In this document: in pieces, positions 32,716-42,274 of the stretch
How the letters are laid out: every line of letters starts with the position of its first letter
How positions within the stretch are numbered: position 1 is the stretch's first letter
Origin: a virus
Taxonomy: Duplodnaviria; Caudoviricetes
Direction: 5' to 3' (one strand)
DNA: 64,000 nucleotides
Virus record (IMG/VR): IMGVR_UViG_2974767555_000001
Coordinates: 1 to 64,000 of that record
Position numbers and translations under genes: made by a program
Notes under the pieces: model-generated
Database searches by the model: none
The model's input: only the letters and a program-made list of their open reading frames with translations
Told to the model about the DNA's origin: nothing

Positions 32716-32790
32716 GCCACCGTAGCTCAGATTGGAGAGAGCAGCCGCCTTCTAAGCGGCGGGTCGCAGGTTCGAGTCCTGCCGGTGGCG
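32716..32790 (+). tRNA. tRNA-Arg(UCU)
   Basis: Acceptor GCCACCG/CGGTGGC, anticodon arm GCCGC-CTTCTAA-GCGGC, T arm GCAGG-TTCGAGT-CCTGC; CCA not encoded. Confidence 0.9.
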
Positions 32791-32793
32791 CGG

Positions 32794-32867
32794 GGGGTGG
32801 TAGCTCAGATGGTCAGAGCCACGGACTCATAATCCGTAGGTCGCGGGTTCAAGTCCCGCCCACCCCA
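32794..32867 (+). tRNA. tRNA with CAU anticodon (elongator Met, or Ile2)
   Basis: Acceptor GGGGTGG/CCACCCC, anticodon arm ACGGA-CTCATAA-TCCGT, T arm GCGGG-TTCAAGT-CCCGC; paired 1-72, so not initiator. Confidence 0.88.
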
Positions 32868-32974
32868 CACCAGAGGTATCTTGGAACCCGCTGTAGCCGA
32901 ACGTGCCGGTAAGCGTCGGGGGTACGCAGGGTCACGAAGTTGGCCCCCGACCGCTACAGCCCGCGAAACGAACT

Positions 32975-38082: not shown

Positions 38083-39285
38083 ATGACGAACACCACCCCG
38101 CTGCCCCCCGTCCCCACCCGTACCCTGCGCGGTGCTGGGATTGAGCAGCTGGTCAACCTCCTGCAGCTCCAGCACCGGCACAAGATCGACGTGGTGGTGC
38201 CGGTGACCACCCTGGCCATGCGGAACGGGTTGCTGCAGTTCCCGATGCTCGACCCGGTGGTGGACGCCGAGGGCGTGACCAACGTGGCCGGTCAGTACCT
38301 GCGCACCGACACGGTGGACCAGCAACTGGCCAGCCTGTTCGACATCCCGGTCCGGTACGTCAGGACCCTTGCCGCCGAGTACACCGAGCTGCTGGACACC
38401 AACATCAACATGTGGGCCGAGAAGGAAGCCGACCGCAACAAGCCGCGCCGGGTACTGGTGCGGATGCTGTACGGCGAGGACCCCGACGCCCCGGGCACCA
38501 GCGGCCTGGTCCGCGCGATCCTGTCCGACCGCTACGGCATCCGCGACAACCTCGACACGGTGATCAGCGTCCTGGACGGTATGCGCGAGGGGGGCCTTGG
38601 GGCAGACAACATCCGGGGCGCTGACCTGACCGACGACCGGCTGTGGTTGCGGGTCCACGCCCCCGAACTGTCAACGCACGCCGGGAATCTGGCCCGGGGG
38701 TACCGGTCGCCGTTCAACGGTAAGACCGCCGAGGAGCTGCCGCTGATCCACGCTGGCATCGTGGTCGAGAACAGCGAGACCGGTGGGGGTGCACTCAAGG
38801 TCACCCCGGAGCTGATCATGCAGGTGTGCAACAACGGCATGAAGATCAACACGGCAGCGATGCGTCGGGTCCACCTGGGCACCAAGCTGGATGAGGGCCA
38901 GATCGCTTGGAGCGCAGACACGGTGGACGCCGCCAACGAGCTGACCAAGCACCAGATCAAGGACGCCGTGAAGTCGTTCATGACGGTCGAGTTCGTGGAA
39001 TCGACTGTGGCCAAACTGAATGAGGCCGCTGGGGTGGAGGTCGAGGACCCGACCAAGACGGTCGAGGTGGTGGCCAAGAAGCTGAGCTACAGCGACGACG
39101 TGGCCAAGGGCATCCTGGGTCACTTCATGGCCAGCGTCGCCCCGACCGAGGAGGGCCTGAAGTACACGGCAGGCCACATGATGCACGCGGTCACCAGCTA
39201 CGCCCAGGTGATCGACAACGTGGACAAGGCCAACGAGGTTGGTGCCACTGGTGTTGAGGCCATGCTGATCGCGGCGGGCCGGTAA
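38083..39285 (+). CDS. DUF932-like phage/plasmid protein
   Basis: RAILSDRY...DN, GIVVENSETG, QVCNNGM motifs. Confidence 0.68.
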   Translation: MTNTTPLPPVPTRTLRGAGIEQLVNLLQLQHRHKIDVVVPVTTLAMRNGLLQFPMLDPVVDAEGVTNVAGQYLRTDTVDQQLASLFDIPVRYVRTLAAEYTELLDTNINMWAEKEADRNKPRRVLVRMLYGEDPDAPGTSGLVRAILSDRYGIRDNLDTVISVLDGMREGGLGADNIRGADLTDDRLWLRVHAPELSTHAGNLARGYRSPFNGKTAEELPLIHAGIVVENSETGGGALKVTPELIMQVCNNGMKINTAAMRRVHLGTKLDEGQIAWSADTVDAANELTKHQIKDAVKSFMTVEFVESTVAKLNEAAGVEVEDPTKTVEVVAKKLSYSDDVAKGILGHFMASVAPTEEGLKYTAGHMMHAVTSYAQVIDNVDKANEVGATGVEAMLIAAGR

Positions 39286-39305: not shown

Positions 39306-39336
39306 CGAACCCCCCGGGTCTGACCCGGGGGGTTCG
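39306..39336. terminator. Bidirectional terminator between accessory region and integrase
   Basis: CGAACCCCCCGGGTC-T-GACCCGGGGGGTTCG between convergent genes. Confidence 0.8.
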
Positions 39337-39420
39337 CTCACCTTTACCCAACACCACCAGCGGGGGGTGCATGACTAGTGCTTGGCCGCTGACGTGTCGC
39401 CGCGATCATACCGCAGACCG

Positions 39421-40662
39421 TCATGTCTGGTACCTGCCTTCGCTGCTGCCGCTGGGGCACATGGTTTCCGAGATTGTCCCCCAGTACCTGCTGGGTCGGA
39501 GCAGGCGCGGGTTGCCAACCAGGTAGGCCAGCGCGGCCTCGTCACCCTCGGTCTGGTCGATCTGGCACGCATGGCGCGCGTAGTAGATCAGCTCCCGAGG
39601 CGTCCGGTCGCGGTACTCGAACTCAGGGTCGGCCTCCAACACGGCCAACACCAGCTGCTCATCAGGTGTGAACCAGTCGGTGATGGCACGGGCGACCGGG
39701 GGACTGAATCCGGTCAGGGCCAACACGATGGCCATAGCGGCCCCCATCATCCCCAACCGGCTTATACCCTCGTCAGTCTTAGCGGCTTGCATCGCGGCCC
39801 GTACCTCGCTGTCATCGACGGCGGTATAGCGCTCGGTCACGGCGACGTTGGCGTGCCCCAGTAGGGTCTGCACGGCGCGCAGGTTCCTCGTGCCGCGATA
39901 GGCCCGGGTCGCGAACCGGTGACGGAGGGTGTGCATCGTGTACCCGGCAGGCATTGCGGCAGCGACCAGCTTGCCCACCCAGCGGGGGGAGAGGTGACCG
40001 TCCTCGTCACCAGGGAACAGCCACCCCTCGACGCCGTAGGCGGCCATCTCTGGGGTGTGGCCCGGGGCACCAAGGGCGATAAGGTCGGCCAGGTCGTCAG
40101 TGATGGGGATGACCCGCTCCCGGTTTCCCTTCCCGTGTACCAGCAGCTGCGGGCCGTCAAACCCCTCGCGTAGGTCACGGGTGTGGACCTGGGCGACCTC
40201 GGCCCGACGTAGGCCCGCCTCTGCCGCTAGACGCATCATCAGCGCCACCCGGGGGCCAGCGGCCTGGAGGGCCTGACGCCACACCCGATCTGGGGCCGGT
40301 CGGGGGACTGGCCGGTCGGGCTTGACCGGGGGCAGGTCGGTGGCCGGGTTGGTCGTTAGGTGACCTGCCTTGTGTGCCCAACCGAAGAAACTTACCGCGC
40401 TGTTGCGGTATCCACGGCGCGTCTCGATGCGCCACTGGGTCTGCCCAGCAAACCACCGTCGGAGCTTTTCGGCAGTCAAATGGTTGGGGTCGGAGCAAAT
40501 CGACCGGGCCATTCGGCAGACATGTGACAGGCGTGTAGCTACGGTGCTTTCCGGGCGACCGGCTGCGCGCAATTCCAATGTGTAGCCGTCAATTAACGGC
40601 TGCCAGTGGGGCGGTACTGGTGACGGAGATGGGCCGCTTTTTTGACCCGAGCGGGTTGACAC
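39421..40662 (-). CDS. int: Tyrosine integrase fused in frame to a C-terminal hydrophobic segment and DUF732-like domain
   Basis: Catalytic R (GLRRAE), K (GKG), HxxR (HTLRH), H (LGH), Y (ERY); frame continues about 120 aa past RAAMQAA; start (GTG 40662 or 40680) uncertain. Confidence 0.88.
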   Translation of the reverse strand: MSTRSGQKSGPSPSPVPPHWQPLIDGYTLELRAAGRPESTVATRLSHVCRMARSICSDPNHLTAEKLRRWFAGQTQWRIETRRGYRNSAVSFFGWAHKAGHLTTNPATDLPPVKPDRPVPRPAPDRVWRQALQAAGPRVALMMRLAAEAGLRRAEVAQVHTRDLREGFDGPQLLVHGKGNRERVIPITDDLADLIALGAPGHTPEMAAYGVEGWLFPGDEDGHLSPRWVGKLVAAAMPAGYTMHTLRHRFATRAYRGTRNLRAVQTLLGHANVAVTERYTAVDDSEVRAAMQAAKTDEGISRLGMMGAAMAIVLALTGFSPPVARAITDWFTPDEQLVLAVLEADPEFEYRDRTPRELIYYARHACQIDQTEGDEAALAYLVGNPRLLRPSRYWGTISETMCPSGSSEGRYQT

Positions 40663-40796
40663 CTCAGCAAGATTAGGCACCACCGTAAGTACGGTTTTGG
40701 GTGAGCCGTGATCGTTATGTGATCGTGACCTGCCTATGCGTTTCGTTGGGCCGCAACTGGGTACGGCCATGCCTTCCGGAAGGGGTTGGGCGGCAG

Positions 40797-41177
40797 TCAC
40801 GCAACCGCTCCTCGTGTTTGCTGGTTGTCACCATCAACCAAGCGCAAGTGGTGTTGAGTCCCAAACCAGAAGGTTGGGGGTTCGAATCCCTCCGGGCGCA
40901 CTTTATTTGCCGTGTCGTCGTCGGGTGATGGTGGAACGAACTCCCCGATACCGGATTCCAGCCAGCTGACTGGCACCCCACACGCCAACGCCCAGGCGTT
41001 CAGTACGACCTTGCGTGGCCGTGTCACGCCCCGTTCAGCATTCGAGATGACGTGACGGGTAACACCCATCGCGTCGGCCAGCTCCTGCTGACTTAGACCC
41101 GCCTCCTCGCGGGCGATCCACAAGCGGTACTTCAGTCGGTTTGGGGGGATGAACCCCTTTTCGTATGCACTAGTCAT
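40797..41177 (-). CDS. Immunity repressor (XRE HTH) containing attP in its 3' end
   Basis: AGLSQQELADAMGVTRHVISNAERG; VRPEGFEPPTF is encoded by the attP core; ssrA-like end DNQQTRGAVA. Confidence 0.87.
   Translation of the reverse strand: MTSAYEKGFIPPNRLKYRLWIAREEAGLSQQELADAMGVTRHVISNAERGVTRPRKVVLNAWALACGVPVSWLESGIGEFVPPSPDDDTANKVRPEGFEPPTFWFGTQHHLRLVDGDNQQTRGAVA
40867..40901 (+). other. attP common core matching the 3' half of a tRNA-Arg(ACG)-type gene
   Basis: CAGAAGGTTGGGGGTTCGAATCCCTCCGGGCGCAC is a variable loop, T arm and acceptor 3' strand with no 5' half. Confidence 0.82.
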
Positions 41178-41184
41178 GTCGCGG

Positions 41185-41214
41185 ATCGTAACGCGCATGC
41201 GCCGCGCTTAGCAA
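41185..41214 (-). promoter_or_regulatory. Leaderless repressor promoter
   Basis: TTGCTA-N18-TACGAT, 7 bp upstream of ATG 41177. Confidence 0.65.
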
Positions 41215-41288
41215 TTGGCGGCTCAAAACAATTAAGTGCCGACAGCGGCACGCTCAGCAAACACGCGCAAAATCAACACCAAACGTAA

Positions 41289-41321
41289 AAAGGGCCATGG
41301 GTTACAAACCCACGGCCCTTT
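41289..41321. terminator. Terminator-like hairpin in the switch region
   Basis: AAAGGGCCATGGGTT-ACA-AACCCACGGCCCTTT (one mismatch) with A/T flanks. Confidence 0.6.
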
Positions 41322-41431
41322 ACTTTGTCCACATCAGCCGCCAAAAGCACTGGAATGTCACACTTGCGGGCCTATGCGAATATGCGTAATACTGCTGCGG
41401 TATGACCCGCACCACAGCAAAGGACCGACCA

Positions 41432-41839
41432 GTGATCAGGCCCCCGTACGAGCACCAGGGATGGCGTAACCCGTTGACGCCCCGGGCCAAGGACCGTCTG
41501 GCCGTCGTCTTGCTCCTGACCACCTGCCTGTTCCTGGGCGCGGTCTGGCACCTAGCGGGTCACGCCCACGCAGCACCCGCTGCCGTGGTCACCGTCGAGA
41601 TGTCGTGGACGGGGTGCGCTGACCTGACGGCACCCGACGCCCACGACCGCACGCAGGTCACCAGCGCGGTGATCTGTGAACCCCCTGCCGCAACCACGTA
41701 CCCGGTCGCCAACGGCGAGATGTACGGCGCGGCCCTGTTCTCACCCGGCGAGCTTGTCGTCTGCCGGGTGTCGGTCGGTGGCCAAGAGGTCGCCTTCCAG
41801 GCCGCGCTTGGCGCGGTCAATTGCCTGGCCCGCATGTAG
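41432..41839 (+). CDS. Exported or membrane protein (MmpS-like Ig fold suspected)
   Basis: AAAGGA RBS; hydrophobic segment ending AHA-AP; CRVSVGG...VNC. Confidence 0.6.
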   Translation: MIRPPYEHQGWRNPLTPRAKDRLAVVLLLTTCLFLGAVWHLAGHAHAAPAAVVTVEMSWTGCADLTAPDAHDRTQVTSAVICEPPAATTYPVANGEMYGAALFSPGELVVCRVSVGGQEVAFQAALGAVNCLARM

Positions 41840-41881: not shown

Positions 41882-42274
41882 ATGAACAAGAAGGCCGTTG
41901 CTGCCGTCGTCGCCGTCCCGACCACGTTGGTCCTGATCGCCGGGACCGGCCTGGCCATCAGCGCCACCCGGGGACCGCAGCACAGCGATGCCGACAAGGC
42001 GTTCCTGTCGCTGCTCAATCACGAGGGCATCGACGTCAGCAGCGAGGACCGCGCCGACCAGATGATCGACAAGGGGCACAGCGTGTGCCAGTCGCTCGAC
42101 AACGGGGCCACCCTGCTGCAGCTGGGTATGGGCGCGATCGCCGACCCGTCACTGACGATGGAGCAGCACGGGACCGTGATCATCGCGGGGGTGTCATCGT
42201 ACTGCCCCGAGCATCTGGAATCCATTGCCGCACAGGCCAAGCAGCTGTCCTCACTGGGCGGGACCAACGCCTGA
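41882..42274 (+). CDS. DUF732-like exported protein
   Basis: N-terminal hydrophobic helix; DKAFLSLL...GHSVCQSLDNG...SSYCP. Confidence 0.75.
   Translation: MNKKAVAAVVAVPTTLVLIAGTGLAISATRGPQHSDADKAFLSLLNHEGIDVSSEDRADQMIDKGHSVCQSLDNGATLLQLGMGAIADPSLTMEQHGTVIIAGVSSYCPEHLESIAAQAKQLSSLGGTNA

Follow-up and report, generated by a model that had tools for sequence, protein, structure and literature searches.

The stretch of DNA analysed here (the window, 64,000 nucleotides) comprises positions 1 to 64,000 of the IMG/VR record IMGVR_UViG_2974767555_000001, a virus of the Caudoviricetes, and carries on its minus strand a tyrosine integrase gene whose open reading frame (ORF, 39421-40800) spans 459 codons with no stop past the sequence ...VRAAMQAA. 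The encoded integrase consists of three parts: a core of the tyrosine-recombinase type, a short basic linker followed by a hydrophobic helix, and a small two-Cys helical domain of DUF732-like fold. The fusion of this C-terminal tail to the recombinase is very probably genuine and conserved. Judged by its sequence features, the tail is laid out like a whole pre-protein destined for export, with a signal-like helix, a cleavage-type motif and a two-Cys domain, and a fusion that is also inserted in the membrane is the explanation to which we lean. The best viral match to a structure model of the tail was 100% identical to it and was a 363-aa protein named 'Integrase [Mycobacterium phage Typha]', and the name Typha is used below. 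In a first-pass annotation, made by a model from the letters of the DNA, the open frame past VRAAMQAA, an AAG codon at 39778-39780, a signal-peptide-like stretch and an ATG at 39750 had been pointed out, and all of them were found where that annotation had placed them.

The core occupies ORF codons 1-340 (39781-40800) and ends in ...YTAVDDSEVRAAMQAA, with VRAAMQAA as residues 333-340 (39781-39804). Residues 182-331 matched the Pfam family Phage_integrase (PF00589; E 1e-19, 71.4 bits against a cut-off of 27.1), the catalytic columns R, K, H-x-x-R, H and Y were invariant in 62 aligned integrase homologues, and a profile search against the Protein Data Bank (PDB) matched Gp33 (5vfz) and XerC/XerD. 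All integrase profiles from Pfam and PHROGs finished at residues 331-342, those from PHROGs at 340-342. Codon 341 is AAG (Lys, 39778-39780), at the place where the first-pass annotation had expected a stop, and it opens the junction linker KTDEGISR (39757-39780). The linker is followed by the 17 residues LGMMGAAMAIVLALTGF (39706-39756), hydrophobic, predicted to be helical and a candidate signal or membrane-anchor segment. In-frame ATGs occur in this helix at 39753 and 39750, and a start at the latter, its second Met, would give a product of 109 aa. Next come a c-region-like stretch, SPPVARA (39685-39705), whose Ala-x-Ala end abuts the conserved domain and is a candidate signal peptidase I site, and a conserved 87-aa domain (39424-39684) with four helices in a predicted model, Cys codons at 39565-39567 and 39457-39459, and a DUF732-like fold. 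The protein ends in ...GRYQT, without an AA-type tag, and the stop codon lies at 39421-39423.

In a full-length AlphaFold2 (AF2) model the core was predicted with a per-residue confidence (pLDDT) above 90, LGMMGAAMAIVLALTGF was predicted as a helix, and the core, the helix and the tail domain were set apart by linkers of low confidence. The G+C content at third codon positions (GC3) was 78-85% in the tail, similar to neighbouring genes, compared with 77% in the core. Together with the conservation at the protein level in distant relatives, this identifies the tail as coding sequence and not a chance open frame. An antisense ORF on the plus strand (39382-39864) was rejected as the real gene, the minus-strand frame being the one conserved as protein.

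Conservation of the tail in the integrase family

The region of Typha was compared with that of Mycobacterium phage Nadezda, which was independently isolated in Russia and is 95.6% identical at the DNA level. The integrase of Nadezda carries the same tail, with 91% amino-acid identity. At the junction Nadezda reads QAAAKTDEGGGVSR and Typha QAAKTDEGISR; the two differ there by in-frame indels only, of 3 and 6 nt, and Nadezda has a Lys at the same junction place plus extra in-frame codons. Bipper, Weirdo19, BPs and the homologue P0010 also have sense codons at the junction and read on into hydrophobic tails. Of the other integrases, the closest are Bipper gp50 (78% identity across the core alignment), Weirdo19 Int and BPs gp32; each continues beyond ...AAMxAA with an arginine-rich linker, then a hydrophobic helix and finally 36-44 residues more. 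The comparison with close relatives that had been proposed as a check thus found the open junction to be common to Nadezda, with tails also present in Bipper, Weirdo19 and BPs. In the Gordonia phages Evamon and PhrostedPhlake the integrase stops one codon further along, after ...AAMNSAA and ...AAMTSAA, respectively. The terminal AA of these shortest relatives is internal in the Typha integrase, which agrees with the buried AA described in the first-pass annotation.

Of the 120 best integrase homologues, about a quarter are long-tailed, and the short forms mostly reach their end, in many cases an AA, within 4-16 residues. The homologues P0010, P0012, P0017, P0019 and P0127, whose cores are 55-58% identical to that of Typha, have the same tail domain at 27-36% identity; the value of 27% is that of P0017, which is frameshifted at its end, and the other Typha-type tails lie at 30-36%. 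The domain is also conserved in P0130, a fragment cut by a contig end, and in Nadezda. Its invariant positions are F39, E43, L50, E65, L66, A73, C74, A85 and L89, with a second Cys near the end, so that the conserved cysteines in tail numbering are Cys74 and Cys110, which correspond to Cys412 and Cys448 of the ORF. P0010 is part of a repressor-integrase cassette found on a phage-like contig of 49 kb. The tails of P0017 (L011:4001-5296) and P0130 (L007:2-367) agree through ...DYLGDGTGIGA and are fully divergent afterwards, which is consistent with a frameshift in P0017; this gene adjoins IS240-type transposase genes, and the element may be decaying.

A phmmer search with the tail against 1.8 billion representatives gave four hits, namely the C-terminus of the P0127 integrase, P0130 and two spurious repeat proteins. 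Neither this exhaustive search nor word-based searches found a free-standing copy of the tail domain, and the word-based searches at 'longer' and 'near' lengths gave no further tail homologues. The tail domain is seen solely as an appendage of this integrase family.

The tail classes were mapped onto an unrooted FastTree phylogeny of 119 integrase cores. All 26 helix-bearing tails fell within one half of the tree (59 rows), at least eight changes of tail state were required, and other tail classes were interspersed among the clades, at least three in number, that had the Typha-type domain. This distribution indicates that the tails are old and have been exchanged or lost repeatedly. If a stop codon was ever lost at the junction, the loss occurred long ago, near the base of the mycobacterial branch of the family.

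Export-type features and DUF732-like fold of the tail

The best 17-residue Kyte-Doolittle window of LGMMGAAMAIVLALTGF scored 1.99, and a window of this length scoring at least 1.6 was present in 20 of the 24 homologues with tails of 30 residues or longer. Summed over 20 tailed homologues, the 15 residues on the N-terminal side of the helix contained 41 K/R and 20 D/E, compared with 12 K/R and 56 D/E in the 15 residues on its C-terminal side. Such a charge bias across the helix reads as an N-in, C-out pattern. An Ala-x-Ala motif stands right after the helix in all six homologues that span this part (ARA, AEA, AEA, AEA, AAA and ARA); it has the pattern of a signal peptidase I site, at which the protein may be cleaved. 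Exactly two Cys follow the helix in 13 of 20 tailed homologues, across at least four unrelated tail classes, and Cys is four times as frequent in the tails (2.8%) as in the cores (0.7%).

The AF2 model of the tail is a four-helix bundle, with a pLDDT of ~90 over tail residues 37-112. When the model was searched with Foldseek against the BFVD viral models, about 20 of the top 25 matches were DUF732 proteins (probability up to 0.99, TM 0.4-0.5, E 0.06-1). The Atlas language-model neighbours of the tail were DUF732 clusters as well, with a feature score of 0.84 that is to be taken as a lead only. Like DUF732 proteins (PF05305), the tail has a signal-like hydrophobic segment followed by a helical domain of ~75-85 residues, and its two cysteines are placed alike, the first in an inner helix and the second, as part of a ...CP motif, close to the C-terminus. 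The difference is that the Typha tail domain is fused to an enzyme, whereas DUF732 proteins are free-standing; these proteins, including both of Typha, bear N-terminal signal or lipoprotein sequences.

By sequence the likeness stayed below threshold. An hhalign comparison of the tail with eight DUF732 proteins aligned the signal, the FL motif and both cysteines co-linearly, but remained below threshold (P 0.0025, probability ~5%). The comparison with DUF732 proteins included five relatives from the phage collection. The Pfam DUF732 model did not match the 109-aa tail at E 0.1, and in a six-frame scan of the genome at E 10 it found both true DUF732 genes and missed the tail. VIA-align of the tail against 48,161 chains gave generic helical bundles only (Z up to 5.7). 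Searches of Pfam and PHROGs with the tail alone returned nothing, Foldseek found nothing in the PDB at E 0.001 or better, and no DUF732 entry was among the results of the two PDB structure searches. Since the Pfam model misses the tail, the hhalign probability is ~5% and the PDB gives generic bundles, membership in the family is not demonstrated, and the tail is DUF732-like in fold and layout rather than a demonstrated member. The similarity to the DUF732 gene at 41882 that had been noticed in the first-pass annotation therefore holds for the fold neighbours and the co-linear motifs, but not at the level of a Pfam DUF732 match or of a BLASTP alignment between the tail and that gene, as none was obtained.

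The DUF732 gene of Typha in the window lies on the plus strand (41882-42274, Pfam DUF732). Its protein is 57.7% identical to that of Nadezda (L001:6601-6993), while the neighbouring integrase region is ~95% identical in DNA, and it looks like a fast-evolving or exchanged secreted protein. No related locus was found when viral contigs were searched with this gene. The second DUF732 gene of Typha is at 66221-66439 of the full record, beyond the window, and has a lipoprotein-type signal (..LVGCSA..).

Proposed membrane insertion and alternative explanations

In the proposed topology, the helix would insert in the membrane N-in and C-out, with the integrase core inside and the tail domain folded outside the cytoplasm, where its cysteines would form a disulfide. 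The hydrophobicity, charge bias and motifs make this topology somewhat the better bet. With the helix inserted and the core inside, the integrase would act, or be held, at the membrane. A membrane-anchored integrase was one of the alternatives raised in the first-pass annotation, and it is the one favoured by a conserved tail with the apparent layout of an exported pre-protein. Bitopic proteins of the ToxR/CadC type act on DNA through a cytoplasmic domain, which a single membrane helix joins to a small outside domain that has a Cys pair, and in ToxR/CadC and RseA-type systems the outside domain and membrane proteases control stability. The predicted layout of the Typha integrase parallels that of ToxR and CadC, and RseA-type processing would be a further parallel; however, ToxR and CadC are transcription regulators, not recombinases, and have no homology to the Typha integrase.

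In integration-dependent immunity, the choice between lysis and lysogeny is considered to depend on how much stable integrase is present. In these phages it might be the membrane tail, and not a simple C-terminal Ala-Ala tag, that sets how stable the integrase is and so the frequency of lysogeny, either via a membrane protease or via signal peptidase plus intramembrane cleavage. Cleavage by signal peptidase or within the membrane could free the integrase or expose a cryptic Ala-rich degron, and lysogeny would then be coupled to the state of the envelope. We regard a regulatory role of the tail in lysogeny as conceivable and rather doubtful. A tentative generalisation, to which we give somewhat less than even credence, is that the whole branch of integrases from mycobacteriophage integration-dependent immunity systems, including that of BPs, consists of membrane-tethered recombinases with swappable extracytoplasmic two-Cys domains, whose level, and with it the choice between lysis and lysogeny, would be set at the membrane.

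Several observations weigh against the membrane-inserted integrase. We judge insertion by charge bias, hydrophobicity and motifs. At 16-17 residues the helix is short, and it sits behind a folded cytoplasmic domain of ~340 residues, which is unusual for a Sec-type signal. Constraint is weaker in the tail, the ratio of nonsynonymous to synonymous substitution (dN/dS) between Typha and Nadezda being 0.33 there (from only 20 differences) and 0.06 in the core. The tail was lost or shortened several times within the family, and is therefore not essential for recombination. Furthermore, a C-terminal ssrA-like signal is described for BPs Int, with ClpXP as the suggested protease (PMC3694055, PMC9262239), and this is easier to understand with a cytoplasmic C-terminus. 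Membrane proteases, or cleavage in the Ala-rich helix by analogy with RseA-type processing, might reconcile a membrane tail with the suggested role of ClpXP.

The alternative that survives best, though we consider it improbable, is that the tail stays in the cytoplasm, where it would mark the enzyme for degradation by Lon, FtsH or ClpXP, or would serve, attached to the C-terminal helix of the recombinase, in oligomerisation or auto-inhibition. In tyrosine recombinases the segment past the catalytic Tyr contacts the neighbouring subunit, and an appended domain could modulate assembly. Several of the tails end in AA, VA or CA. The integrase of BPs, whose tail is comparable, is reportedly unstable, and a single C-terminal substitution is reported to stabilise it (PMC3694055); reviews describe C-terminal ssrA-like tags on these integrases (PMC9262239, PMC7194413). 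The same report on BPs speaks against the suggestion of the first-pass annotation that burying the AA stabilises the integrase: BPs Int has a buried AAMMAA followed by a tail, yet is reported as unstable, and a buried AA thus does not imply stabilisation. On the other hand, the charge asymmetry, the invariant Ala-x-Ala and the Cys pairs that recur in unrelated tail classes are hallmarks of exported domains and are not predicted by a degron, and the nearest neighbours of the fold are the secreted DUF732 proteins. The Typha-type tails also lack a conserved C-terminal motif; their ends differ (RYQT, VAT, CVA, AAA and LIS), as expected if the end is beyond the reach of cytoplasmic proteases.

It is unlikely that the tail is mainly a separate secreted protein of 109-123 aa made from an internal start, with the read-through integrase being incidental. 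The candidate starts for such a nested gene are the conserved Met of ...AAM (39790-39792), the TTG at 39754-39756 and the ATGs at 39753 and 39750. The sequence that begins with the conserved Met, MQAAKTDEGISRLGMMGAAMAIVLALTGFSPPVARA, shows the n-region, h-region and Ala-x-Ala of a textbook signal peptide, as do those of P0010 and P0012, and a GAGG stands 11 nt upstream of this ATG. However, the Met and the GAGG are equally conserved in short, tail-less integrases, so that both are explained by the recombinase fold, and P0010, P0012 and P0019 do not conserve the Met codons that adjoin the helix. Evamon offers a precedent, as its integrase gene (gp46) ends in TAG and is followed after 18 nt, in the same frame, by gp45 (L005:2473-3018), which encodes a 175-aa lipoprotein-like protein with a signal sequence and a lipobox that ends in ...NYCP; an integrase with a separate exported protein does therefore exist in the family. 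Against a nested gene, in no member of the tail family are core and tail separated by a stop, and the phmmer and word-based searches revealed no split form, which would be expected if the fusion was dispensable. In addition, the junction indels between Typha and Nadezda preserve the frame.

The least probable explanation, which we practically dismiss, is a recent stop loss (TAG to AAG at 39778-39780) or a sequencing error in this genome that fused a short integrase to a downstream gene: the AAG is one base off TAG and the shortest relatives, those of the Gordonia phages, stop one codon further on after ...AAM(N/T)SAA, but the open junction of Nadezda, with its Lys and extra in-frame codons, speaks against both a loss peculiar to Typha and an error, and the sense codons and hydrophobic tails of Bipper, Weirdo19, BPs and P0010, the same tail domain on distant cores, and the confinement of helix-bearing tails to one half of the tree, with the Typha-type domain in at least three clades, speak against a recent loss.

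The immunity cassette and its known relatives

The integration-dependent immunity system of BPs was reportedly described by Broussard et al. in Mol Cell in 2013. In Typha, the integrase gene is adjacent to and co-directional with an immunity repressor gene on the minus strand (40797-41198; Pfam HTH_3, E 1e-12; PHROG 2328 transcriptional repressor, E 1.5e-34), whose viral form is 133 aa long and ends in ...QQTRGAVA downstream of the attP core. This core (40859-40903), which resembles a tRNA 3'-end, lies within the repressor ORF; over its 45 bp it shares 95.6% identity with the section of BPs gene 33 overlapping the AttP annotation. The repressor stop and the first possible integrase start overlap by 4 bp (GTGA), like those of BPs genes 33 and 32, and the two genes could be co-transcribed. 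Judging from this arrangement, repressor and integrase form a BPs-type system of integration-dependent immunity (PMC3694055, PMC9262239), and the setting assumed in the first-pass annotation was borne out.

The integrase start may differ from the annotated ones. The database form of the protein (P0008, 363 aa) lies on a record of 75,687 bp and begins at Met97 (40512), Bipper gp50 is annotated from the Met equivalent to Met97, and the annotated start of Nadezda is 3 codons further upstream. Conserved sequence begins near codon 62, and ORF residues ~62-96 (GPSPSPVPPHWQPLIDGY...ATRLSHVCR) align with the conserved N-terminus of the integrases of BPs, Weirdo19 and P0010. The real start is therefore probably upstream of Met97. 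In codons 1-61 the GC3 is only 51%, which may place the start near codon 50-62 and not at the GTG that overlaps the repressor stop.

BPs gp32, the model in which integration-dependent immunity was worked out by experiment, shares with the Typha integrase the same type of cassette, with a repressor that contains attP and a co-directional integrase that overlaps the repressor stop by 4 bp. It is a homologous integrase (~55% identity) in which ...AAMMAA is likewise followed by a basic linker and then a hydrophobic helix. The two differ behind the helix, where BPs gp32 has 36 acidic residues without cysteines that end in ...VAGF, whereas Typha has the 87-residue two-Cys domain that ends in ...RYQT. 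The BPs literature (PMC3694055, PMC4557955, PMC9262239), in the parts available, describes a C-terminal degradation tag; in contrast, Typha and Nadezda end in ...GRYQT and their AA is internal, though their integrases may be unstable by another route. Evamon (Wizardvirus) gp46 and PhrostedPhlake gp43 belong to the same integrase family (~53-55% identity) and also lie in a repressor-integrase cassette. Unlike the Typha integrase, Evamon gp46 ends in ...AAMNSAA, a true AA terminus, and the exported protein is encoded apart from it, by a gene whose family is unrelated, while in PhrostedPhlake the gene downstream of gp43 is on the other strand. The arrangement in Evamon could show what a state before the fusion, or after a split, looks like.

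The cassette and the integrase family are already known, and the gene is annotated merely as 'integrase', a single label under which the tail is presently hidden, so that its description is a gain for annotation. The word 'membrane' has zero occurrences in PMC3694055, and the passages on these integrases in the accessible parts of the literature do not mention a hydrophobic helix or an exported domain. A literature search for transmembrane or C-terminal extensions of tyrosine integrases and for membrane-anchored tyrosine recombinases found nothing relevant. The accepted picture is that of a cytoplasmic integrase with a simple C-terminal degradation tag. If the enzyme was a membrane protein with a folded domain outside, a site-specific recombinase would work from the membrane, the decision point of a minimal switch would be wired to the cell envelope, and the reported instability of BPs Int would need another mechanistic reading. 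The question bears on the well-studied BPs switch. Integrases of the BPs type are used in mycobacterial integration vectors, and removal or alteration of the tail could change their efficiency and stability.

Downstream of the integrase, a G+C-rich hairpin at 39308-39331, between the integrase and the convergent gene at 38083-39285, is a likely terminator. The DNA at 39307-39366, which covers the hairpin, matches Bipper and Cracklewink, and a terminator-like site was identified on the minus strand. On the other side of the cassette, no Cro- or Xis-like helix-turn-helix ORF was evident in the interval 41199-41839 opposite the repressor; at the corresponding place Bipper carries an annotated 'excise' gene. 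The first ORF in the rightward direction (41402-41839) codes for a protein of 145 aa that has several cysteines and a hydrophobic segment, and the DUF732 gene comes next. The intergenic region that separates the repressor from the rightward genes contains, at 41289-41321, an inverted repeat (AAAGGGCCGTGGGTT TGT AACCCATGGCCCTTT) with perfect 15-bp arms and a loop of 3 nt, which may be an operator or else a terminator. For the equivalent region, the Weirdo19 paper describes a palindrome.

The attP core of Typha resembles that of BPs. Genes for tRNA-Arg(TCT) and tRNA-Met lie side by side at 32716-32868. Attachment of BPs uses a host tRNA-Arg gene.

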